DNA of 56,246 nt, counting the filler, from Dirinaria sp. TL-2023a (taxonomy: Eukaryota): assembly GCA_051941275.1 (NCBI GenBank). It is 2 parts of 2 records of this genome, joined end to end, with 100 filler letters (N's around TTAATTAATTAA, not from the genome) between each part and the next. Parts side by side here need not be neighbours in the genome. Positions count along the whole stretch, not along the records: positions 1 to 28,094 come from JAVEBF010000129.1; 1 more part is not named here. One strand, 5' to 3'. A program made the position numbers and the translations under genes. Positions 5,040 to 56,246 of this stretch are shown here, piece by piece. Position 1 is the first letter of the stretch, and every line of letters begins with the position of its first letter. Under the pieces are notes generated by a model. It was not told where the DNA came from. It was given only the letters and a program-made list of their open reading frames with translations, and ran no database searches.

Positions 5040-6425
5040 TCAAGAGTCGAGGCTTTGCACCTCCGTAAGTCCCTCCTTGGTGGCCGCCTTCTGCGGGTTA
5101 GCGGCATCGCTTCCTTCGGAAATACTATCCTTCGGAGACCCCGAAGCGGTCTCATCTGTGGTCTTCTTGGCTTTCATAAGAGGCCAATGCCCGGTCTTTT
5201 CGTTGTATCTCATGGCTAGGAAGGTGATCATGACGGCAATCCAATATACGTTGTACGATATCACAGACCCGTAGGTTGCCGAGTTCTGCCAGCCGAAGAG
5301 AGCGTTGAAAATGCCCCAACCCCCGCCGCCACCGATCTCAGGATTACAGCACTTGACAAGAGTTAGTCATCCGTCAAGGGCGAAAGAGAGGGGGAATATG
5401 CTAACGTTGACATGCCAGACGCTCTTGCGAATATCGTAGGACCCAGGACCGGAACCGGTTTCGGCCGCATCGCCGCCAATGATTTTGCTCCACTATATTA
5501 TATCAACATAGGTTCTCTTGCGTATGACGTCTGTACTCACCTTATGCATCTCGAAATCCCAGACGGCTCTGGAGAAGAGGCCCGCTGCCACCAAATATAA
5601 GAAGCAGGTGGACACTATCAAGAATATTTGTATCGAGGCGAAGTTTCCGCCTCTGCAGTCACGTCAGCTATGAAAAGCATGATCGGAAAGCCCTTTTTCT
5701 TACTTGTAGATGAGGTATCCAATGAGGCAGCCGCAGGCAATGCCCAGGACGACGGGAAGAGGGAAAGAGCTCGCAGGAAGACCCAAGCTTATTCCGCCGA
5801 TGAAGACCACCGCTTCCAGGCCCTCACGAAGTACCGTGATGAAGGGGAGAACGAACATGGCATACTTCTCGCACCACAGCTTGAAGCGGCCTTTCGTGCT
5901 TTTGCCTTTAGCGCTGTCCTTGGCTTCGATGGATCGGGCGAGCTTGACACGCCACTTATCCTGAAGCTTGGAGACCCGGAGCAAGGCAGCTCCCATGATG
6001 GTGATGACAATCGAGGCAAACAGCCCGAAGCTCCCCTCCCAGATATCTTCGGTGTTGGCCCAGTGGTCATGGCCTAGGCTGTAGAAAGCCCCGATAAATC
6101 CGGCACCGATGCAGATACAGATCGCGAGCCCCACGATGGTTCCCCACCAGACCTACAGAGATGTTCGTTAAGCAAAGCGACGAGAGGATTCCCATGTTCG
6201 GGACACTTACCTGGCGGACCAGTTTCTTGTGGGTTGCGCCACCATCATGATTGCCGAGAGTCTGCTTCAAGAAGGCGAGGAGTACTGAGACGATAATGCT
6301 GGTTTCCAAAGTCTCGCGGAAACAGATGAAGAAGACTATAGTACCATTAGCAGGGCAGATCTCAGCGACTGTCGCCAGGCCTGGACCTCACCGGGCACCG
6401 CGAAGACGTCCGTTGCAGCAACCAT
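5040..6425 (-). CDS. FTR1: High-affinity iron permease
   Basis: Multi-exon gene. The N-terminus reads [36 protein letters not shown], and a second REGLE motif follows ([16 protein letters not shown]). It has the [20 protein letters not shown]-terminal region and a stop at 5040-5042. Confidence 0.95.
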
Positions 6426-7453: not shown

Positions 7454-7588
7454 CCCAAGATAATTTCTCTCCCCCACTGCCTTGTCGCCATCGTCGCCGA
7501 AAAGGGGCTTCACCGTCGAGGTAGAGATACCTCGTAGCATTGACCGTCGAGCGTTTAACAGCTGACTCGGCTCGTTCACGAACGCAAG

Positions 7589-9557
7589 ATGTTCACGTCT
7601 CTCAAGATGTCTTTTGGCGCGGCCATCGTCCTTCTGGCGTATACGGCCATTGCTGCCACGGTCACCTTCGATTTCAACATCACCTGGGTCAATGCCAGCC
7701 CCGACGGCTTCGAGCGCCCGGTCATCGGCATCAACGGGCAATGGCCGATACCTCAGATGAACGTTAACAAAGGAGACCGTCTTGTCGTCAATGTAGTGAA
7801 CCAACTAGGAAACCAGAGCACGAGCCTTCATTGGCATGGTTTGTACATGAACGGCAGCACCCACATGGATGGATCAGTGAGTGCCAGCCAGTGTGCCATT
7901 CCGCCCGGTGCCTCTTTTACGTATGATTTCAAGGTAAACATCCTTTCCCATCTTTTTCGAGTGGATTGATGCTCATTTGACAGGTCGAGCAACCTGGCAC
8001 GTACTGGTATCATTCTCACGATGACGCCCAATATCCAGATGGGCTTCGCGGACCACTGATCGTGCACGACCCAGACTCCCCTTATAAGGGCAAATACGAC
8101 GAAGAAATCGTTCTCACGCTCTCGGACTGGTATCACGATGAGATGCCGGGTCTACTCAAGTTTTTCATCAGCTACGCTAATCCTACAGGCGCCGAGCCGG
8201 TGCCTGACTCGGCACTCATGAACGAGACGCAAAACCTGACCGTGTCTGTCGAGCCTGGCAAGACATACATGTTTCGGATCATTAACATCGGCGCCTTTGC
8301 TGGGCAATATCTGTGGTTCGAAAACCACACGATGCAAATCGTCGAAGTGGATGGGATTTACACTGAGGCTGCTGATGCCGAAATGATTTATGTCACCGCC
8401 GCTCAGCGCTACAGTGTCCTTATCGCGATGAAAAACGATTCGTCCTCGAACTACGCGTTCGTCGGCAGCATGGACCAGGTGCGTATTGAATCTCTCGCAG
8501 GAGTCTGCCCTGACTTTTCTTAGGATCTTTTCGATACTGTTCCGGATACCCTCAATCCTAACGTCACAGGCTGGCTCACTTACGACGCATCCAAGCCTAT
8601 GCCTGCAGCTGCAATAATCGACGAATTCGATCCGTTCGATGATTTCACCCTCGTGCCAACGGATGGCGAGCGCTTGTTCGACCATGTGGATTATTCCTTC
8701 AATCTTGACGTAAAGATGGACAATCTTGGTGACGGAGCCAATTAGTAAGATTTCGTCTTGCACAGCAACCGTACGAACACCTTCTGACAAAAACCCAGCG
8801 CCTTCTTTAACAACGCAACCTACGTCGGCCCCTCTACCCCGAGCCTCTACACCGCTCTCTCAACCACCGACACCGCCCTCATCCCCTACATCTACGGCCC
8901 GAACACGAACGCCTACGTTCTGCAGAAGAACCAAATCGTCGAGATCGTCCTTAACAACAACGATGCCGGCAAGCACCCTTTTCATCTCCACGGCCACAAC
9001 TTTCAAGCTATCGTCCGCTCCGCCGAAAGCGCAGGGAACTACGTCGGCAATGAGACCTTCCCTGCGGTCCCCATGCGGCGGGACACCTTCATGGTCCGGC
9101 CAAATGGGAACATCGTGCTTCGCTTCCGCGCCGATAATCCCGGGGTGTGGCTCTTCCATTGCCACATCGAGTGGCATATTGCGTCGGGTCTCGTGGCGAC
9201 GATGATCGAAGCGCCGATCGAGTTGCAGCAGTCCGGGTTGACAATCCCGCAACAGCACCTGGAATCTTGTGACCAGCAACGCATCCCCACGACCGGGAAC
9301 GCGGCGGGGAAGACCAAGGACCTGTTCGATCTCAAGGGGGTCAATGTCAGCCCCAAGCCTTTGCCGAGCGGCTTCGAAGCCAAGGGGATCGTGGCCTTGG
9401 TGTTTAGCTGTGTGGCGGCTTTTGCAGGCATGGCCGTGATTTCGTGGTAAGTATCCCTTTCAAGCTTGCCAAAAGGCTGCAGAGGTAATAATTGCTCGCT
9501 AGGTACGGCGCCGGCGAAATTGGGAAGAAGGAACCTGCTGGTGCGCCGAGGCAGTAG
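7589..9557 (+). CDS. FET3: Multicopper ferroxidase
   Basis: Five exons and a signal peptide. Copper motifs are [18 protein letters not shown] and [10 protein letters not shown], with the NPTGAEPVP ferroxidase motif and a C-terminal TM helix ([21 protein letters not shown]). The last exon is 9503-9557 (TAG). It is divergent from FTR1. Confidence 0.95.
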
Positions 9558-12166: not shown

Positions 12167-12252
12167 ATTTTATACCGCATAATCATAGCATTAGCCGCTG
12201 ACCCACATGCTAAGATGCCCTATGTCCCCAAAAGGAGAGCGCCTGATGTTTG
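12167..12252 (+). repeat. Short dispersed direct repeat, copy 1 (homologous to 16763-16842)
   Basis: attttataccgcataatcatagc matches attctatatcgcataatcatagc at 21/23. aaaaggagagcgcctgatgtttg matches aaaagaaaagcgtctgatatttg at 19/23, with all differences transitions. Confidence 0.75.
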
Positions 12253-13469
12253 GCACCAACGTGGTCAAATGTAGACATTTTGGTAGGGTGAAAATACTCC
12301 CTGTAACCCTTGTATAACCCTGACAAGAAAGTACGGTGCCTTTAGGTGAACCAAAAGTAGGTAAATATCGCCGAGGGTGCGTTTATCTGAAACACCTCAG
12401 CCACCGCCAGATCTTCACCGCAGACCACCATCACGCGTTTGTATTCGGCGGCTCCTGCATCATGCATGGATTCAGCCTTGATTTGGTTGCTTTCATGCAA
12501 AGGAATGACGCGAATCAGCAGCTGCAGACCAGCATTGACAAGGGCGATCTCAGCCGCGGTGGGTGCTTCGAGAGATAAATCCTTTGAAATTGAAGGACTA
12601 TGGCACATTTGGAAAGCCTAGGGTGCAGATGTCTCATGTTCCTCTTGCAGCTTTGCGTTACAGAAGAGTCGTACAGCAGCTGAGACTCAAATTAACGATA
12701 TGAGGCCCTCCAATTGTGTCGGCTTTTCTAACCCAAGCGAGTTCTCGACTGGTTAGGGGAGCTCTTCTAGAAGTCGTCTGTCCCTTTTCCCTTGTGTCCA
12801 AAGTCTGTTTTTCTAGCTCCTGGTATCCCTAACTAAGCTTTCGTTTCAAGTCGTGATGTAAACTAGGTTGTGATTCGAGAACATGCAGTCTATCACTCAC
12901 TGTCTGTGCTTTTTCATCTCGGTTACCTCGACAACGAAACGAAAAGATTTTAAGAGTACACTGGACGCATGCTTCAATCCTATCATGCCGGAGCCTCTTG
13001 CTGCCTGATGTTGGATGAGCCTTCTTTACTTTTTGCGGCAGTCGAATCGTTTGAGCGATCTTACATTCATAGATGGTAGACTAACAACGGTACGATCCGC
13101 TGTCCGCGGCGAGGCTGTCAGCTAATGTGGCTGCGAAACCCAATTGCTTGGGAGGGCGACTTCGCCGCCTCTAAGCTTAGCTTTTGATCGTAGAGGCTGC
13201 TGTTTCAGGATACGAGCGAGGAGAGCTAAGAATGGAGTGCCTTGTGTAACAGCCACAAGCAATATAAGATCCTGAGCTTTTGATGGCACGGCGAGGGAGA
13301 TAGTTGATCATGACTGCACCACGAGAAGCACAGGAAAACAAGATACCCCACTGCTAGCATCAAAGCATAACGCAATCACGCCGTACGAACCCTCCCATCC
13401 CCCGAGCAAAATCAGTTGATCGTTCGAGCGTACAACAATCGGCACGACCTCGAACTTCCACCTCTTACG

Positions 13470-15197
13470 ATGTCGCCAACGCAGCCTAAGACGCTGCGGA
13501 GTCCGCCTACTCTGAGCCAAGTCCTCGAAAACTTGGAGCAAGAGAAGTTCTTGTGCCTCGGCCATCCTCTCCCTAATTGTCACAACTGCAAAGAGTTGCC
13601 GGACTATGATCGCGAGTGGGCTAGAGAAAGTGTACAGAAAGCGCTCGATATCATTTCTGCGGGAACCTCTGAACGCTCTCCCTCAAGTCATGATTTGACA
13701 ACCCTTTTGAGAAGTATTGCCACAAATCTCTGTTGCACGAACCATCAAGAGGCAAGCTTTGATGAGGACTTTGCCAATTACTGGATGAGTATGGACAAGT
13801 TGAAGAGTATACTGAGGTCTCATAGCTGGCATTTGCCCATGGGAGAGTGGCGCTGCTTAGGCTCTTCAACTTCAAATCCTTGCTGTGGCCTGAGAAAAAA
13901 GTGGAGCCCATCCGAACGCGATGACGTCTTTCGTACGCTGAACATGATTGCTGTTGCTGCAGACTCCGAGCCCAATGCACTAGAAGAACTTTTGAATCAC
14001 CTTGTGGAATTCTGGACATGTCGCAAACATCGCGCAAACAAACACACGATTCATGCTGACCTCCTGAAGACCTTCAATTCTTCCTCTTCGACGAGAAGGC
14101 ATAGAGAGATCACAGGCGCAGATATCTCACCAAGGAGATCCACATCAATTTCGTCGGACAGTGAAAGGCGCTCGAGAAGCAATTCAGTCCAGAGTGTCTC
14201 TAGCTCTCTGACTTCTGTAGACCAAAGCGGCGATGGCGATGATGAAGATGAGAGTATCCTGGATGAGGATGACGGACGAGATCCAGGCAGTCCATGCTCT
14301 CAAAGAGGGCGTAGCATTGCACAGCCAACCAGCCATGCGCAAGTGATCATTGAAGAGCCTCACCCTTCGTCAATCCATCCTTCGATTGAAGTTTCAGCGA
14401 CACCAAGGCGGCCGGCACCGCTTGCGAGCTCAACGAGTGCCCATCAGATCCAAATGACAGCATCAGATGCCAGCCTTAGCGTTGACGATCGTCATCAACG
14501 CTCAGCTTCCCAGGCCGCCGCTTCAGCGAACAATTCAGTTCCTAGAAGCGAGCCTATTACCTTTCTGCCCTTCCACGCCCTCAAGCAAAGCTTCGGAGCT
14601 ATAGCCCAATCAGTCTTCTCCCTGGTCCAAAAACCAATCACAGTATCCGAAAGCCCAAGCCCGAACTCAACAGACGGCTACATTTATATCTTCCAATCGC
14701 CCGACTACCCAAAATATATTAAAATCGGTCGAACCACACAAAGAATCGACGAACGCCGTAACCAGATATCTGGCTGCAAGAACCTACCCAAGCTTCAATT
14801 GAAAAGCGAACTTTGCTATGGCAAAGTCAGCAACCTCGCTAGGTTAGAAAACCTTATACACACAGATCTCGCCAATGAGCGCCGCTGCTTCAATTGCCCG
14901 TGCAAAAAGCCGAGGGGAAATCAACGATATGACTTGCGGCCTACTGATGCCAGGGATCACGAAAACAAAACCCGACATCGGGAATGGTTTGAGATGAGTG
15001 TGGACGAAGCGTGCCAGAGAATAGAACAATGGCGCAATTGGATGCGGCAGAATCCGTACGGCACTGACGGAAAGTTGAAAGAACATTTCCGACGGCGGAT
15101 CAGCTACTGCGAGCGGAGAGCCTCTGAGATGGACCGAGAAAATACCAATGACCAGCGGTGGAAAACATTCATGACTCCCTTTTACATGGATGACTGA
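13470..15197 (+). CDS. T5orf172/MUG113 (GIY-YIG-like nuclease) domain protein
   Basis: Intronless ORF with first ATG at 13470. The C-terminal domain reads GYIYIF..KYIKIGRT..IDERRNQ..C..RLENLIHTDL..CxC..HREWFE..IEQW. It has a Ser/acidic linker and a Cys/His-rich N-terminus. Confidence 0.85.
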   Translation: MSPTQPKTLRSPPTLSQVLENLEQEKFLCLGHPLPNCHNCKELPDYDREWARESVQKALDIISAGTSERSPSSHDLTTLLRSIATNLCCTNHQEASFDEDFANYWMSMDKLKSILRSHSWHLPMGEWRCLGSSTSNPCCGLRKKWSPSERDDVFRTLNMIAVAADSEPNALEELLNHLVEFWTCRKHRANKHTIHADLLKTFNSSSSTRRHREITGADISPRRSTSISSDSERRSRSNSVQSVSSSLTSVDQSGDGDDEDESILDEDDGRDPGSPCSQRGRSIAQPTSHAQVIIEEPHPSSIHPSIEVSATPRRPAPLASSTSAHQIQMTASDASLSVDDRHQRSASQAAASANNSVPRSEPITFLPFHALKQSFGAIAQSVFSLVQKPITVSESPSPNSTDGYIYIFQSPDYPKYIKIGRTTQRIDERRNQISGCKNLPKLQLKSELCYGKVSNLARLENLIHTDLANERRCFNCPCKKPRGNQRYDLRPTDARDHENKTRHREWFEMSVDEACQRIEQWRNWMRQNPYGTDGKLKEHFRRRISYCERRASEMDRENTNDQRWKTFMTPFYMDD

Positions 15198-15663
15198 GCT
15201 TGAGGTTTGGCATGTGCTTTGGCCTTCGCACTGCATAGTACAGACTCATCGGATTGGAATGCTTCCTTGTGGGTGACAGAGCTGGCGCATTCACGGTAAA
15301 TTTCTGTTTTGGGGAAGAGATTTCTCCCTGGCGCAAAAGACATGACGTCCGAGATGGTGATTATGGAATTGGGTAGAAGCTTTCTTTGATGTTATGAGCC
15401 ATGGAGCTTAGGAGGTAATCACAGTGGGCAAGATGGACTCCCCTTTGAGGATTATAGAGATGGCGCTTTCATTTTATACTTTGTCGTTTTCTTATGTTGC
15501 CAGTCCGTCTATTTTGATTCAATTGTCTTCCTTCTTTTGAGTTGATGGTCTATAGCAAAAAATATCTCTGGTGTTACATGAAGGATATTTACCTAGCTAA
15601 ACTTATCTAGACTTGGCTGACGTTATCAGCAGCACTGGACTCAGATTCAAAGTTGCATTTTTT

Positions 15664-16492
15664 TCAAAATTTTGTCTTCTTTAACCCAAGCTGGAGACTC
15701 AGAGCAGTTTCACCAGTTTTCTTGTCGAGTAAAACGAATGACTCAATGTCCCCGTGAGTGATTCCTAGTAGCGCTCTAGGGCGAGAACCGGTTACCGCGA
15801 CCAGCAAGAGGAAAATGACAGCCTGCACTCGCCGACTTTCATGTGAGCAAGAGTTGATGTTCGTCACGCAGTGACATCGAAGAATCTCTAAGAAGTCTTC
15901 AGCGTCCAATAAGTGTTTTTCTGTCTCGTTGTGATCCAAGACATGCTCTTTTGCTAAGAGTCCGACGATGAGTCGATTCATTTTAGCAGCATTCGATATT
16001 CTTGCGCTGAAAGCAGTCTACCTCATATACCTTATTCAACATCAGAGGCTGATTCTTCTTTCCTTGTACTTGATGTAAACTTGGCTAAACTGATGCCAAT
16101 ATGTGGTTACAGAAGTGACTTTTCGCACAGTAAACTCGTTGCACAGTCAGTGAAAGAAGTTGTTGATCCTACTGGCAGAAGACATCTTCAAAGTATGGTG
16201 CGAGTCAATTATTACAATAGTGCAGTACCTGAAAAAGTGTTGCCGTGAGTAGAACGACTCAAAGAACGCAAAGAGAAGAGCTCTCAACGTACTCCCTCCA
16301 TAGATCTTCCATCCCATTCATCTGTGATTCAGTGAGGTCCTCATACAAGCCTGTAGCCCAACGCTTCTTATGCACTGACTCGTATGACCGGTTGTAGTAT
16401 TCGCGTGCAGATCCATGTTTCTTCGCGATCGAGGAACGAGCTGTAGCGAAGGCCGCTAGAGGTACACAACGGGGGATTTTGCGACGAATCAT
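15664..16492 (-). pseudogene. Decayed, 3'-truncated DUF3435 tyrosine recombinase (Starship 'captain')
   Basis: Fragments read RINNFFH*LCNEFTVRKVTSVTTYWHQFSQVYIKYK and ESRRVQAVIFLLLVAVTGSRPRALLGITHGDIESFVLLD, typical of the DUF3435 N-terminal half with the first catalytic Arg. There is an in-frame TGA at 16147-16149 and a frameshift near 16045. No HxxR..Y C-terminal half is visible. Confidence 0.8.
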
Positions 16493-16494
16493 TT

Positions 16495-16762
16495 TGTCAG
16501 ATTTAGGAGGTGTTTATGAGGTGAATTGAATCCATGTATGTGTATTTGTATGTGTGTGTTTCAATTATCTAACATCGAAAAGAAAAAGAGCATTTTGTGG
16601 AATTATTACATATTCAATATTACTATTACTCGAGAACTGTCTATTATCACTCGAGAATTCTCGTCTCAGTCATTCTAATCGCTTTCGTCAAACTATACTT
16701 GACATTTTCTTAGTGGTGGTGAGTTTTCGATCTATTCGATTTTCGATTTGTTCGGTTTTACA
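16495..16762 (-). mobile_element. Ty1/copia solo LTR (RIP-mutated) inserted immediately upstream of the captain ATG
   Basis: On the minus strand it reads TGTAAAACCG...CTAAATCTGACA, the same termini as the LTR at 54076-54406. It is also homologous to 19063-19270. The TSD is imperfect (attt[t]/attct). Confidence 0.8.
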
Positions 16763-17200
16763 ATTCTATATCGCATAATCATAGCGATTAATTCACGTAT
16801 TAAAATCATCTATGATCTTAAAAGAAAAGCGTCTGATATTTGATTTTGACGACTAATTCTAGCTCCGCATTTAACATACGACGATTTCTTAAATTAAAAA
16901 CAAAAAAAAGCAATCATTCGACGCGAGATTTTGAAATTGAACTTTTTTTTATCTTTGAAGATATGAAACGCATCAATCAAAAGAGAGATTGAAATGTTGA
17001 AAAAAAAAAAAGATTTTGAAAATTATCGACAATAATTTCGACATTGAAGTAAATCGAGTACGTATATTAATACTAATGTTCGAGTTACATTGCTCGACTG
17101 TGTACTTGAGGTCTCTTCAATTCTATCTTTACTCATTCTCAGATCATATTTGTCATCGTTCAGAAGGGAGTGTCTATAAAACTACAGCGATCTGGGGGTA
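16763..17200. repeat. AT-rich RIP-like tract upstream of the captain, including copy 2 of the 12167 repeat (16763-16842); possible Starship left arm
   Basis: The tract is AT-rich and carries transition-mutated homology to 12167-12252. The AT-rich character fades near a GTAA (TTAC on the minus strand) at 17198-17201. Confidence 0.5.
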
Positions 17201-17573
17201 ACAGTAGCCAGGTGGAGCTACCTCTCGAGACTGAAGTCCTGAATGACCCCAGTGTTATTGCCATCACTGCAGATCAGATGAATGGCAATTGCTATATTTA
17301 GACGCCGTCTCGATCGTTGACGAACGGCGATTGCAAGCTTTTGACTTCCTCAAGGCAACAGAGTCAGTTGCAGTCAACAATTTAGTATTACTGGAGGATC
17401 TGACGCCTCCGGCCGTACAGCTGTCCCGAGACCTACAACAACCATATCTTCTGCCAACGAGGCTCCATTCCGCCTTGATAGACCCTTCCCGCCAAGATTG
17501 GAACGGAGTCTATCAACCAAAGCCTTAGTAAATGCAACCGCCAACATCATGCATCTTATTAGCGAGATGCCGC

Positions 17574-18286
17574 TCAGGACGACTTGTAAGCCGTGAAGAC
17601 AAAATTATCAAACCCCAAAGCCGTCGTCGCTGGTAGCGTGGTAGCCTCCAAGATGGTAAGCGTGATATCGCTCAGCCCCGAAAAAGTCTCGACGGGAAAT
17701 GAGACTGGTAGATATCTTGCCGGCAGCGTTGTGCCTAGATTATAGTCGATTTCCTGGACACTGGTGACCCCTGTCTTCGCGTTGACGCCGGAAACCTGAA
17801 TGCGACAGGCGGACGGCGCCGGCACAGGCGAGTTGGTCTGTATCACGCACGAGATGAAGAAGGATTTCAGATCGAAGGAATATGTGTCGGAGTTATTGTA
17901 AGTGGCGGAGATCCGAGCTCCTCCACCAGTCGTCAGCTGAGCCGTGAGGTCGGCTGCAAGGACGTTGGGCACAGAAGGGGTGACGAGCACGGGCTGCGAC
18001 TGAGGGCCCGGTGTAATCACGTTGAAGCCGGTGTACCCGAGGCCTTTGTAGACTGAGATGGGCTCCAGACCTAAGCTTTGTGGAAGGTCGTCGTACTATT
18101 TGGACAAGGTAAGCGTGATTAAGTGGTTGTGTAGTCGACTTGATGGAAGTGTCTGTTCGCAATGGCAAAATACAGAAGGGTTGTACGAACATTAGCCACG
18201 ACGTTAGATGGTGTCGGTTTCTTGGGAGATGTCGGAACCCCAAGCACTGGGAGCGCGAGGGCAGCAGCCAGTAGAACCACCCGCAT
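17574..18286 (-). CDS. Secreted protein of unknown function, about 205 aa
   Basis: Signal peptide MRVVLLAAALALPVLG. Exon 1 is 18286-18191, the intron is 18190-18096 (GT..AG), and exon 2 is 18095-17574, continuing in frame as YDDLPQ..YKGLGYTGF..FDLKSFFISC..C..FDN. Confidence 0.8.
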
Positions 18287-19062
18287 GATGGACAATCTCT
18301 GCTTCGATTGCACAGTGGTCAGCGGAAAAGCAGCTCGTAAGGAGTGAAAGAGACAGATTAAAGGCTTACGAGGACCAAAGATGTTGCAGAAAGAATCTTT
18401 ACTCAGTGCGCGACCGCGACGAGTGTATACACTTGGAGTCCAGAAAAATTTGACTATCACGAGACAGAATCATCTCTCTTTTATACAGCCACAGCTTTGC
18501 CACCACTCCCTTCCACTGTCGTCTTTCTGATCAAATGATTGCTGAGAGGGCCTATCAAAGCCATCTCGGAGGATCACCGCAGACCAGTCAAGGTGGATTT
18601 TTATTTTGCCACATTGACCACTATAGAATGTCAGACTGAGCATACCCAATTAAAGGCAAACCCGAGCTAATCCGCCAAAAAAAAAAACATGTCTGTTGGA
18701 TATACAGACGTCAAAAAATAAAATGCCACAATTTGAGAGTTGCAAGATCGGTCCAGATCTTGTTTGATCCAAATTCCTTGTTCTTCAGTATCTGCTTAAG
18801 CAGAGAGACGCGGACCGAAGACAGTCTTATCGGTCTTGGATAGCAGATCAGAGATGTCGCGCAGAGATTATAAGAAACGCTGACGGTCATGCCAGAAGGA
18901 TTCAAGATCGCGGGATGGCAACATCAATCTCCGCGCCCAGTCCGCGATCAAAGAAGATCAAACGTCTTTTCAGTTCTTTCAACCTCTTATGGCCCTAGCC
19001 AGTTCGGATCGGAGCTAGGTGCTTGACCTTAACCAGAATTTCCATCGAGAACCATGGTCTTC

Positions 19063-19270
19063 TGTCGGATTTAGGGGGTGAATTGAACCTATGTATGTGT
19101 ATTCGTATGTGTGTCATCAATTGCCTAACATCTAGAAGAAAGAACATTTGTGGGTACTAAATATCCAAAATCAATACTACCCGGAGACAACTATCTCAAA
19201 GAGTCTAACCGCTTTCGTCAAACTATACTTGGCATTTTCTTAGCGGTGGTGGCGTTATTACAGTCTTACA
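19063..19270 (-). mobile_element. Ty1/copia solo LTR with a perfect 5-bp TSD
   Basis: TG...CA ends, with TCTTC on both sides (19058-19062 and 19271-19275). It shares gctttcgtcaaactatactt..cattttcttag with the 16495 LTR. Confidence 0.88.
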
Positions 19271-28094: not shown

Positions 28095-28194
28095 NNNNNN
28101 NNNNNNNNNNNNNNNNNNNNNNNNNNNNNNNNNNNNNNTTAATTAATTAANNNNNNNNNNNNNNNNNNNNNNNNNNNNNNNNNNNNNNNNNNNN
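28095..28194. other. Artificial scaffold linker N44-TTAATTAATTAA-N44 (stops in all six frames)
   Basis: Exactly 100 nt and symmetric, with a palindromic six-frame stop cassette between the N runs. Confidence 0.95.
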
Positions 28195-32131: not shown

Positions 32132-33279
32132 TTATACGAGTATTAATGTTCCGTTCGAAACGCTCGAAGAGAGAACCGAACTATTGCTAATCAAATCAAT
32201 TCCTGGCAGCAGAGCGTCCGAGAAGGCCAAAGCACCTGAGCCTGCCGGATAGATTCTATCGCCCACCACCTTCGCCAAGTCGACAGCACACTCCACATCA
32301 TCTAGCTGTCTAAGATTGGCCCTCAAGCCCGTAATCATATCGCACATCATACCATAGGTAACTTGATACTTGGTCTCCCGCGGGGATCTGTGGGACCATG
32401 CTGCAACTTTCAATCCTTGGAGAGTATGTTGATACTCCTCGGATAAAGCGGTATCTTCGCCGTAATGCAAAATTTGATGTCTCACATCTGAATAAGCGTC
32501 AGTGAGGATAGCACTGATCGATGCTACCGACATCTGCCTCCTTCGACCATATTGCTGTATTGTCATGGCGGTGTCACGGATCTGGGCCTTGACCTGGGAA
32601 ACGCCCAGGGTGCTGTTTGTTGTCTTCTGAGAATTCAAACTTGTTCCATTGGACAAGGCCGAGTTCTCCACAAAACCGATAAGACCATTGCCCGCTTCCC
32701 TTGGCAGGCCCCCGATCACAGGCTCAAGAGCCACGCTACATTCTCGATCATTCAAGCGCATCAGATTTCTCTCCAGTCCAGTAATCATGTCAAACAGTGT
32801 ATCATAAGTCACTTTGTAATGCGTCTCTGAGACGTACTGCCAAGCTTCGATACGAAGTTCATCACGAACAAAATTGTAAGCCTCCACGAGCGGAGTATCA
32901 CCGCCGTGCTGAGCGATCAAGTTCAGAACATCTGCATTGGCACTCTCAAGGATCTGCGATACTGCTGCGTAGGGCATTTGTCTGGCATCATCTTCTACTC
33001 CGATCTCCAAGTGTGTGTTGCGGATGGTCGTGTGTATGGAGATTGAATTTGTGGAGCTATGTAAAACCTTAATTAACATGATCATATAAAAAACTAGCAA
33101 CGCTGACTTATAGGAGAGAAGATTTTTCAATAAACGTACCTTACTCCTGTTGAGGTGATCCCAGATGGTTGCGAAAGAGCGATTCCACTAGAAGGCGGTT
33201 GAAGGGGAGTCGAGATTGACCAATCGAAGAATATCAATAGCCCAAGCAGAGTTGAGGACAACACTTCACGAGGCTTCAT
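32132..33279 (-). CDS. Secreted protein with two tandem copies of an unknown domain of about 125 aa
   Basis: Exon 1 starts at ATG 33279 with a signal peptide (MKPREVLSSTLLGLLIFFDWSIS), followed by an intron ending at 33057 and exon 2 from 33056 to 32132. The internal repeat is IRxT..RQM..AW..ETxYxVTY..DMITGL..EC..AGxG. Confidence 0.8.
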
Positions 33280-54075: not shown

Positions 54076-56246
54076 TGTAAAACCGGGACCGGGTGGACCG
54101 GTTCGCCACCGAATGTGGAAAGTTGACGAAAACGGTTAGCCTCCGCAAGATGGCAGTCCTCGGAAACGCTAGTGCTCAGGTAATGGATAATAGATATAGG
54201 CAGTGGCCCGGATAGTATACATGGCAGTCCGCAGAATGACAGTCCGCGGATAGGTAAACCGCAGGACTCGGAGTAATAGTAATATCGGGTATATAGTAAC
54301 CCACAATTCCTCGCTTTTCTTATAGATGTTAGGCAATTAATCACACACATACAAACGGCCAAAACATAGATACAATTGACCTCACAAACACCTTCTAAAT
54401 CTGACAGTTATGAGCCCGAATGACGTTCAAATGCTGTCTACAATCACACTACACTTAAAGAGTACTGCATAGTTCAGTACTTCCTTGCTCACACGTATAT
54501 CATCTACACTATTTACATCATTGTTTACACATCAAGAGTACTGCACTTTCCGATACTACCTTACTCAAACGTACACTCACACCAGTGTTTACATCATACT
54601 GCACTACCTGCACTTTCTTCCCCCTACACGACTTGCATCTATCTCACCTATGATGTCAGAAACCAAAAGGGAAGTCAAATTGAGCTCCCAAAAGGATTGA
54701 GATGTCTGATTTGCCATAATTAGAGCAAAAGCTATTGAATATCAAATATGACCCCTCATCAACCCCGCAACAGTATCAAAGTCAATTGAGAGCATCAGAT
54801 CTATCGAGCCGATATTGAATGATATGCAGAGCGCCGACTTCAATGAAAAGAACATCCGCTATAATCATGCTCAGATCAGGTTCAAAAGAAATCTCAAAAC
54901 CTAAAAAAAAGAGAAAGAAGCAATGAGCAAAATGATAAACTACATATACGAAATCACTAGTTCGACAAATCTAATCTGCATTTAGAAGATTGAAGTGCAC
55001 TCTTGAAATGTGCTTCGCACATTGAAAGCACGTCTTGCTTCGTCAGACTCAGCAAGATCTCTGAAACTGAAAAACAAATACAAACGTCTTGTGAAAGGAT
55101 CGTCTAAACAAAATGCAGAGTTCTGACTTGATGAGTATCAAAAAGTCTACACCTTAGACAAAGAGTATAAAATCGAAGAATTTAGTAAAGGAAAAAGAGT
55201 CTATAAAGACTTTCTACGAGCAATACACGCAACGGCATCTGATTTCTTCGACGCGCATTGTGTTGTTCTGAAAACGATTGAGAACTACGATACAAAGTTG
55301 CATGAAGTCATGAAAGATTATAGACACTAGATGCGTCTGATGAATGTTTAAGAATTATCAATATCAAACTTCGTCTTTGTCGCAGATACTTCTATTGACA
55401 ATAACGCAGAGAGCAACGAAAACAACAACAACAAATCTACATTTCGAGATGAAAAACAATCTCTCATCTGCATTTGCGAATATAAACATTGATACTTCGA
55501 TTGTCACTATCTCAATGATGAGAAACGCTCTATCAATTGAAAGTCTAATGAGGGAACTCAGAAGAAGATTGATGATGTCATGAAGAATGAGAAGAAAAGA
55601 AAGCAGGTTGAAAGCAACATAGCAAGATCTAAAGAAATACAGACAAAGAAAGTCAAAATCTCTACATCTATCTCTGAGTCTGTCTCAACATCTGCTTCAA
55701 CATCAATCGAAAAAGCAGATGCATTTGCATCCTTTGCATTTGCAATCGAAATCGACGCGTCTCATACTTTGCAGTCCTCATGAATACTAGATCACGCGGC
55801 CAATTTGCACGTTGCAAACAAAGATATGAAGCACCGCTTCATTAAAGAAAAAGACGAGAACGAAGCGACGATGTTATCAGACAACGGACGTCTTGCAATA
55901 AAAGTCTATGACCACATCGATATTAACGTCAAAACATCTACAGAAGACAACATGATAACGTTGCTCAATGTTGCCTATGTATCTGACTTTATGATTAACA
56001 TAGTATCGAGAGATATTCTGAAAAAAAAAGGCGTATATCTTAACACTCGAACTCGGCATCTTATGAGAAATGAAGTCCTCATAATAATCGTTTCTAAGAT
56101 CGATGACTACTATGTACTGAAACATAATGCACTACATGAAGAGGTGACAGCAACTGCTCTTGCAACTAACTCAACATCAAGCACACGAACTCGCACTTTA
56201 AATGACTGGCATCGACTTCTTGCACATGCACACGATGAAGCGATAA
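54076..56246 (+). mobile_element. Ty1/copia LTR retrotransposon, 5' portion, RIP-inactivated, running off the window end
   Basis: The 5' LTR is 54076-54406 (TG..CA) and the PBS GTTATGAGCCC is at 54407-54417. The broken gag has a zinc knuckle CICEYKH*YFDC near 55469. The protease motif *ILDHAANLHV starts at 55781 (W to stop), and the GAG-pre-integrase motif WHRLLAH is near 56208. Confidence 0.92.

Follow-up and report, generated by a model that had tools for sequence, protein, structure and literature searches.

The closest described systems are the Starships, giant transposons whose captain gene encodes a tyrosine recombinase with a DUF3435 domain. A captain-first layout and a TTAC core are both described in the available text of the papers dealing with Starships and Hephaestus (PMC10104507, PMC11162782). 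Starships of lichen-forming fungi have also been described already: the available portion of one paper reports the element Tangerine and a survey of 1,508 tyrR genes, and finds captains to be abundant in lichen-associated genomes (PMC13486527). According to the same portion, Tangerine harbours RIP-affected repeats and has a putative degraded copy, and most captains of its family are without a core-binding domain (PMC13486527). The starfish paper, as far as its available text goes, adds that pseudogenes may be common among Starship recombinase genes (PMC11162782).

The locus considered here lies in a stretch of 56,246 nt from Dirinaria sp. TL-2023a, which was analysed as a whole and is called the window below. 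It very probably holds what is left of a Starship-type (DUF3435) captain gene for a tyrosine recombinase, a stump without function that has lost the outer homology on both sides. A DUF3435 relic of this kind is an expected by-product of Starship activity, an ordinary molecular fossil.

Identity and extent of the captain stump

A sequence-only reading of this DNA had placed a damaged minus-strand recombinase at 15664-16492, and the pseudogene is indeed real, a minus-strand tyrosine-recombinase relic at about 15650-16492. The piece 15664-16017 (-) matches PF11917 (DUF3435) with 31.4 bits (E 1.3e-7, profile positions 2-78 of 418), above the gathering cut-off of 25.8 bits, which is the match that reading had proposed to look for, and tblastn with relatives of 692 and 699 aa as queries covered 16492..15658. 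What has survived is only a stump, residues 1-238 of the 692-aa relatives (16492 to about 15650), i.e. about 240 of about 690 codons or about 35% of the gene, comprising exons 1-3 and two introns. The N-terminal region survives along with the first conserved box (GSRP), and a complete DUF3435 domain with its catalytic part is not there: in the relative P0005, DUF3435 spans residues 157-570, of which the window, matching residues 1-238 only, retains the beginning. No further piece of the captain after residue 238 was found by tblastn in all 56 kb, and the possibility that the rest of the gene lies beyond an insertion inside the window was rejected on that outcome. Because the rest of the catalytic domain is missing, the stump is predicted to be unable to recombine DNA.

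The outer homology breaks off on either side. Downstream, similarity to the family ends at about 15650-15669, in or near intron 3; a convergent gene with a T5orf172 domain has its stop codon about 450 bp further on. Upstream, the similarity extends 9 bp past the ATG, as far as an LTR-like repeat. When the whole window was compared by blastn with 607 kb of related loci, all 14 hits fell inside 15669-16502. The relatives themselves were found with phmmer (46 proteins), the two named ones coming from the lichen-forming fungi Letharia columbiana and Vezdaea aestivalis; a word-based protein search with the 117-aa relic piece against longer proteins returned nothing at E <= 0.001.

Gene structure and lesions

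Exon 1 (16293..16492, -) is open from an ATG at 16492-16490 to a GTACGT donor, and residues 1-65 of P0005 map to 16492-16289 by tblastn. Intron 1 (16229..16292, -; 64 nt, GTACGT...CAG) is a GT-AG intron whose position is conserved in 7/7 aligned relatives. Exon 2 (16022..16228, -), delimited by exon-intron alignment, contains a TGA at 16147-16149 that aligns with TGG in the relatives, as well as a 1-nt deletion near 16046. Intron 2 (15973..16021, -) is degenerate, with a GTAGAC donor and, where the relatives have their acceptor AG, a GA, so that the splice acceptor is lost. Exon 3 (15650..15972, -) holds the start of the DUF3435 domain, GSRP box included, and a second TGA at 15664-15666 (CGA in the relatives); past the breakpoint there is a faint K.Y...IFC similarity (about 15600-15545), which is not significant. 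Genuine damage amounts to two nonsense codons, a deletion of one nucleotide, the lost acceptor of intron 2 and a truncation after about 15650. The stop and frameshift damage reported earlier is real as regards the two TGA codons and the 1-nt deletion, whereas the supposed frameshift at 16229-16292 is the conserved intron 1, and the stop cluster near 16020-16035 lies at or in intron 2. In fungal pseudogenes, seeming frameshifts can be introns, and caution is warranted.

At the 577 alignment columns in which all 7 relatives agree, the window differs 125 times, with 66 C>T or G>A changes, 22 reverse transitions and 37 transversions. The relic has probably decayed by GC-to-AT-biased point mutation, with loss of both its neighbours.

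Full-length relatives in lichen metagenomes

The relatives, present in 43 metagenome loci, behave like Starships. The 5' end of their elements is sharply defined and lies 435-512 bp ahead of the captain ATG, which bears out the earlier statement that captains sit at Starship 5' ends, and a conserved 30-nt terminal motif is found at this end in 27/43 loci. These elements display 20 distinct 5' flanks (insertion junctions) in lichen metagenomes. The junctions often read TTAC, TTAAC or TTCAC, in agreement with the TTAC-type repeats that had been invoked; TTATT precedes 17/20 of them (and TTAGT one more), and the conserved family start TTAA(A/C)CTGGATC comes after. No inverted copy of the terminal motif occurs within 10 kb of the related captains. 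Elements with different flanks have at least 9.5-11 kb of cargo in common, including HET and NLR-like genes, and some copies have only about 2.8-4.9 kb around the recombinase gene in common. In one related captain (L029), five exon-sized frames are open. In these comparisons, the full-length relatives are the leading gene at the 5' terminus of mobile elements that carry cargo. The 30-nt motif makes this family a source of a candidate recombinase-binding site for studies of lichen Starships, and the family is perhaps a more useful by-product of this analysis than the relic.

Probable rearrangement of the flanks and a possible fragment arrival

The LTR-like repeat noticed upstream of the relic is present at about 16496-16762 (-), and the window holds two further copies. 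Copy 1 lies right next to the relic, 4-9 bp ahead of the ATG, contains tandem sub-repeats at 16724-16759 and shows no clean target-site duplication. Copy 2 (about 19062-19262) is flanked on both sides by GTCTT, a 5-bp duplication, and copy 3 (about 54267-54406) adjoins AT-rich DNA holding a Pol_BBD match of 25.8 bits, just under the 27-bit cut-off. Beyond copy 1, positions 16763..16851 (+) are a GC-to-AT-mutated duplicate of 12167-12261 (blastn E 1.6e-6), with 61 identities, 21 C>T or G>A changes and 3 reverse transitions in 95 aligned columns. This 90-bp duplication is direct, has its source 4.6 kb away and encloses, between its two copies, the T5orf172 gene together with the relic and the LTR-like repeat. 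Since copy 1 lacks a target-site duplication and the sequence on its far side is copied from 4.6 kb off, an LTR-associated rearrangement probably removed the original captain leader and the element end; the missing duplication could alternatively be due to point mutation.

A rival scenario is that no full element was ever here, and that a captain fragment came as a passenger of a segmental duplication or of an LTR-element-mediated event and was later fixed together with the T5orf172 gene. The abrupt homology at both ends, the coincidence of the 5' end with a repeat that lacks a target-site duplication, the direct duplication around the three features and the absence of cargo-like genes and element termini are all consistent with such an arrival. 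However, the fragment begins at the gene's own start region and has introns 1 and 2 in order, which deletion of a resident gene accounts for as easily, there is no other copy of the relic that could reveal a donor, and the duplication is short, its role being putative. A fragment arrival is unlikely in our estimation; the comparisons made are compatible both with it and with in-situ decay of a full element, and do not tell the two apart.

The intact neighbour

Next to the captain stump lies an intact T5orf172/MUG113-domain gene of 575 codons (13470..15197, +), convergent with the relic. Its frame is open, and it matches PF10544 (68.2 bits, cut-off 20, E 9.4e-19) and PF13455 (27.5 bits, cut-off 22.3). 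A homologue, P0065, is 83% identical, and another protein, P0001, matches the window by tblastn past the family breakpoint, down to 15592. For P0001 and for P0065 alike, the ENA contig has a listed length of 8791, and from this equality we infer that the two proteins are encoded on one contig, which looks like an orthologous locus of another genome with the same captain truncation and the same intact T5orf172 neighbour; given this apparent orthology, the relic would be old.

One could go further and picture the block from about 12.2 to 16.8 kb, in which the 90-bp duplication encloses the T5orf172 gene, the stump and the LTR-like repeat, as the last remnant of an ancient Starship. The T5orf172 protein, with its GIY-YIG-like nuclease domain, would then have been domesticated and kept by selection in two or more lichen-fungus lineages, even as the adjacent captain decayed. 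We consider this a long shot.

The missing leader and the proposed left boundary

The sequence-only reading had also proposed that a derelict giant Starship began near a minus-strand TTAC (17198-17201) and ran leftwards. On such a model the captain would be its first gene, with the T5orf172 gene and whatever lies further left as former cargo. Several observations are consistent with this. With 16496-16762 removed, about 440 bp separate the ATG from 17201, close to the spacing of 435-512 bp in the relatives; many related junctions carry the same TTAC, TTAAC or TTCAC; and the Hephaestus TTAC core is found in direct repeats in the available text of the corresponding papers (PMC11162782, PMC10104507). 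The AT-rich tract does fade near the TTAC as described, GC per 50 bp being 0.20-0.40 over 16500-17149 and rising to 0.46 and 0.54 at 17150-17249. Finally, a weak purine/pyrimidine match to the terminal motif, the best in the region with 5/30 mismatches at 17148 (-), falls roughly at the expected leader start if the repeat is taken out; the 1,200 positions searched should yield about 0.17 such matches by chance, and this one may be a real remnant.

The TTAC itself, however, is present at no more than chance frequency, with 155 on the minus strand over the 56,246 bases, or one in about 363 bp, and five of them within 16500-17700. That at 17198-17201 is not preceded by TTATT, and the next letters are CCCCAGATCG rather than TTAA(A/C)CTGGATC. 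The family terminus aligned locally over 17201 scores the same as the median of all window tiles, and no recognisable terminus stands at the proposed boundary. Searches of the window for the 30-nt motif that allowed up to 9 mismatches, or that tolerated transitions, did not find it. This absence is weaker evidence than it looks, since the window copy has diverged by about 28% from its closest relatives and the motif could have drifted past the 9-mismatch limit. The 440 bp cannot be equated with a captain leader either, as neither nhmmer nor purine/pyrimidine-coded or transition-tolerant alignment found homology to the relatives' leaders beyond 16501. Positions 16763-16851 duplicate 12167-12261 and not a leader, and the rest of the AT-rich tract (16852..17197) is without homology to captain leaders, related loci or other DNA in the window.

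Left of the stump, at 1-17 kb, no Starship auxiliary gene (DUF3723, patatin-like, NLR, HET or ferric-reductase) was revealed by Pfam scans, which covered open frames of 110 aa or more window-wide, plus those of 60-109 aa in the intervals 9.4-13.5 and 16.5-19.1 kb, and which spliced genes could escape; a typical FTR1 / multicopper-oxidase iron-uptake pair is found there instead. Related loci match the window nowhere outside the gene stump, and comparison of the T5orf172 gene and the right-flank frames with the 43 related loci gave no matches. As for possible target sites, no 5S rDNA, other RNA family or tRNA gene was detected in 9-21 kb, nor any tRNA gene window-wide. The stump reads leftwards and no element end can be located in the window, where the former element boundaries can no longer be made out; we regard the TTAC at 17198-17201 as a coincidence, and a derelict element starting there is highly improbable. 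A DUF3435 fragment with a nearby TTAC is insufficient for calling an element boundary.

Comparison with known systems

By itself, the relic carries little weight, as Starships of lichen-forming fungi have already been described in the available portion of PMC13486527. It resembles those in that its two named relatives come from lichen-forming fungi; it would differ from most captains of the Tangerine family, as characterized in that portion, in belonging to a family with a well-conserved N-terminal region, the sole part that survives in the window. The captain of the Starship Wallaby is a parallel of another kind since, according to the available text, it too has premature stop codons and was skipped by automated tools (PMC11162782). 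Wallaby nevertheless retains its element boundaries in that account, whereas the gene in the window is also truncated and no boundary was found.

The likeness to Starship captains such as HhpA of Hephaestus consists in the DUF3435 match of the relic and, for the relatives, in their place as first gene at a sharp 5' end, their shared cargo (HET, NLR-like) and their TTAC-like junctions. The stump in the window differs in being without catalytic domain, boundaries or recognisable cargo, and is comparable at the DUF3435 level.

Cryptons are recombinase-only DNA transposons of fungi. Like them, the family studied here encodes a tyrosine recombinase, and some related copies have nothing but the 2.8-4.9 kb segment in common. 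Unlike Cryptons, other related copies with different flanks have at least 9.5-11 kb of extra genes in common, and for this reason the relatives fit cargo carriers rather than Cryptons.

Identity and extent of the captain gene

On the minus strand at 15664-16513, three open pieces resemble a tyrosine recombinase, which the sequence-only reading had taken for a damaged DUF3435 captain. The family label proved correct, since the piece at 15664-16017 matches Pfam DUF3435 (PF11917) above the cut-off (31.4 bits against 25.8; E 1.3e-7), the match being confined to positions 2-78 of the 418 in the profile. Among 1.84 billion representative proteins, a full HMMER search returned 46 relatives at E <= 0.001, many of them short fragments. 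Two have names, one from Letharia columbiana and one from Vezdaea aestivalis (P0005, 692 aa, with its DUF3435 domain at residues 157-570), both lichen-forming fungi. When the whole window was searched by tblastn with P0005 and seven other relatives, 16492..15658 was the sole region matched, corresponding to residues 1-238 of 692, and nothing else scored better than E 0.5. The captain gene is therefore real, yet reduced to its first third, with the catalytic part missing from all 56 kb. What had been described as a damaged recombinase is indeed a pseudogene, but one that amounts to a one-third stump, and it adds another example to a type of relic already known.

Lesions and decay of the stump

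Seven related genomic copies were aligned with the stump to draw the exon-intron map. Intron 1 (16229-16292, minus strand, 64 nt, GTACGT...CAG) lies at the same position in 7/7 relatives, and the frameshift previously placed there is in fact this conserved intron. Genuine lesions on the same strand are a nonsense codon at 16147-16149 (TGA versus TGG in relatives), the loss of 1 nt near 16046, the loss of the acceptor at the ~15973 end of intron 2 (~16021-15973, with donor GTAGAC in the window), where the AG of relatives has become GA, and a second nonsense codon at 15664-15666 (TGA versus CGA). Beyond ~15650, where relatives have intron 3 and then exon 4, all family homology is gone, and a faint K.Y...IFC similarity past this breakpoint is not significant. 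Of 577 columns in which the seven relatives are unanimous, the window departs from them in 125, with 66 C>T or G>A changes, 22 reverse transitions and 37 transversions, and decay of the stump is thus GC-to-AT-biased. Because the affected C and G show no enrichment in CpA context, the label of classical RIP was not applied.

The 5' end of related elements

One scan of metagenome contigs provided 43 loci (607 kb) encoding relatives, the best of which share 70% protein and ~72% DNA identity with the stump. Within and between three subgroups, copies have a common, sharply defined 5' end, which lies 435-512 bp before the ATG, and a 30-nt motif sits 7-8 bp inside it. This motif is present in 27/43 loci (<= 7 mismatches), always on the coding strand, and no inverted copy was found within the flanks examined of the 43 loci. 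The 27 motif-bearing loci reduce to 20 distinct 5' flanks, and the element starts with TTATT at 17/20 junctions and with TTAGT at one more; TTAC, TTAAC or TTCAC often directly precedes a conserved TTAA(A/C)CTGGATC. The motif is a candidate recombinase-binding site for a lichen-associated Starship group. Many of the 20 junctions lie in AT-rich flanks. Across subfamilies (L001-L037, ~435-512 bp upstream of the captain ATG), the motif is conserved where coding DNA is only ~65% identical.

The proposed boundary at 17.2 kb

An AT-rich tract fading near 17.2 kb had been noticed upstream of the stump, and 50-bp bins bear this out, with a GC content of 0.20-0.40 over 16500-17149 followed by bins of 0.46 and 0.54. 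The minus-strand TTAC taken to mark the element boundary is present at 17198-17201. This tetranucleotide occurs 155 times on that strand of the window (~1 per 363 bp), five of them within 16500-17700. In a blastn comparison of the whole window with the 43 loci, all 14 hits fell inside 15669-16502. Five approaches were used to seek the family leader or terminus. With a profile built from eight leaders, only the 30 bases surrounding the ATG were recovered, and 16769-17260 gave no match; scores of plain pairwise alignments resembled those of shuffled sequence, scores of purine/pyrimidine-coded alignments resembled those of random window pieces, and transition-tolerant alignments were equalled by 2-33% of window tiles. 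The 30-nt terminal motif was not found in the window at <= 9 mismatches, although 28% divergence could carry it past such thresholds, nor with a C>T/G>A-tolerant pattern at 3 mismatches, and the family-terminus alignment over 17201 had the median score of all window tiles. The best purine/pyrimidine match to the motif near the proposed boundary (5/30 mismatches at 17148) is a lead, not evidence, with 16 such matches in ~112,000 positions and hence ~0.17 expected in the 1,200 searched. Nothing except a chance-level tetranucleotide and a GC change speaks for the 17.2-kb boundary. The sequence-only reading is partly upheld: its observation holds in part and its captain label is right, but what remains is a one-third stump, and beyond those two features its boundary is without support.

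Family homology ends 9 bp before the ATG, at an LTR-like repeat of ~267 bp (16496-16762) that adjoins the stump without a clean target duplication. The 89 bases directly after it (16763-16851) are a mutated copy of 12167-12261 (blastn E 1.6e-6), with 61/95 columns identical and 21 C>T or G>A changes versus 3 reverse changes in the right copy, so the supposed leader is, in its first stretch at least, something other than captain leader. An LTR-associated rearrangement may have removed the original leader and the element end. This direct duplication of ~90 bp, with copies 4.6 kb apart, brackets the neighbouring T5orf172 gene, the stump and the LTR-like repeat. A second repeat copy (~19062-19262, ~201 bp, GTCTT on both sides) is an apparent solo LTR related to the one beside the stump. 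A third (~54267-54406) adjoins AT-rich DNA with a match to the retrotransposon polyprotein domain Pol_BBD (55784-56245; 25.8 bits, just below the 27-bit cut-off), and 54267-56246 probably represents an LTR retrotransposon that has decayed and extends past the window end.

Neighbouring genes and age of the relic

Convergent with the stump is an intact T5orf172/MUG113-domain gene of 575 codons (13470-15197, plus strand), for which a word-based search with a limit of E <= 0.001 found only two other homologues, 83% and 46% identical. The closer one, P0065, lies on one ENA contig listed at 8791 bases; P0001, which was called as a gene from a similar pseudogene and aligns to the window beyond the family breakpoint, as far as 15592, likewise lies on one contig of 8791 bases. 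The two would appear to share a single contig, in which case a stump with the same truncation lies next to the same T5orf172 gene in another genome, and the relic would therefore predate the split of the two genomes.

Left of the T5orf172 gene, ~3.7 kb without a domain match are followed by a three-domain multicopper oxidase (7559-9447, plus strand) and a divergent FTR1 iron permease (5703-6152, minus strand), the usual high-affinity iron-uptake pair. Pfam scans of open frames, which may miss spliced genes, showed no Starship auxiliary genes left of the stump, and the T5orf172 gene and right-flank frames are absent from 43/43 related loci. No tRNA genes were found in the whole window, nor 5S rDNA or other RNA families in 9-21 kb. 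Elsewhere, a 351-aa open frame (32135-33187, minus strand) weakly matches the filamentous dsRNA virus capsid family PF25660 (E 5.5e-4), its 19.8 bits falling short of the 27-bit cut-off. Two runs of 44 N each (28095-28138 and 28151-28194), which look like a scaffold gap, lie directly beyond the 28,094-base contig to which the window's T5orf172 protein is assigned.

Cargo of related elements and likeness to Starships

Among related loci with different 5' flanks, L018, L022 and L027 have at least 9.5 kb in common (98-99.6% identical) and L023 and L025 at least 11 kb, the common part in either group reaching the end of the sequence analysed; other copies have just 2.8-4.9 kb in common. DNA downstream of the related captains encodes HET, DUF6606, DUF3638/DUF3645, NACHT-type plus WD40 and TPR plus DUF676 proteins, a P450 and a dynamin-like protein. 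In L033-L037, the TPR-repeat (NLR-like) gene that follows the captain contains tandem repeats with a ~123-bp period (~14455-15525 in L033).

Lichen-fungus Starships have already been published, 1,508 recombinase genes having been surveyed in 554 genomes (PMC13486527). As described in two other papers, captains lead the element, and the Hephaestus family has direct repeats with a TTAC core (PMC10104507, PMC11162782). The related loci match the Starship pattern, in which cargo varies behind a conserved captain that marks a defined 5' end.
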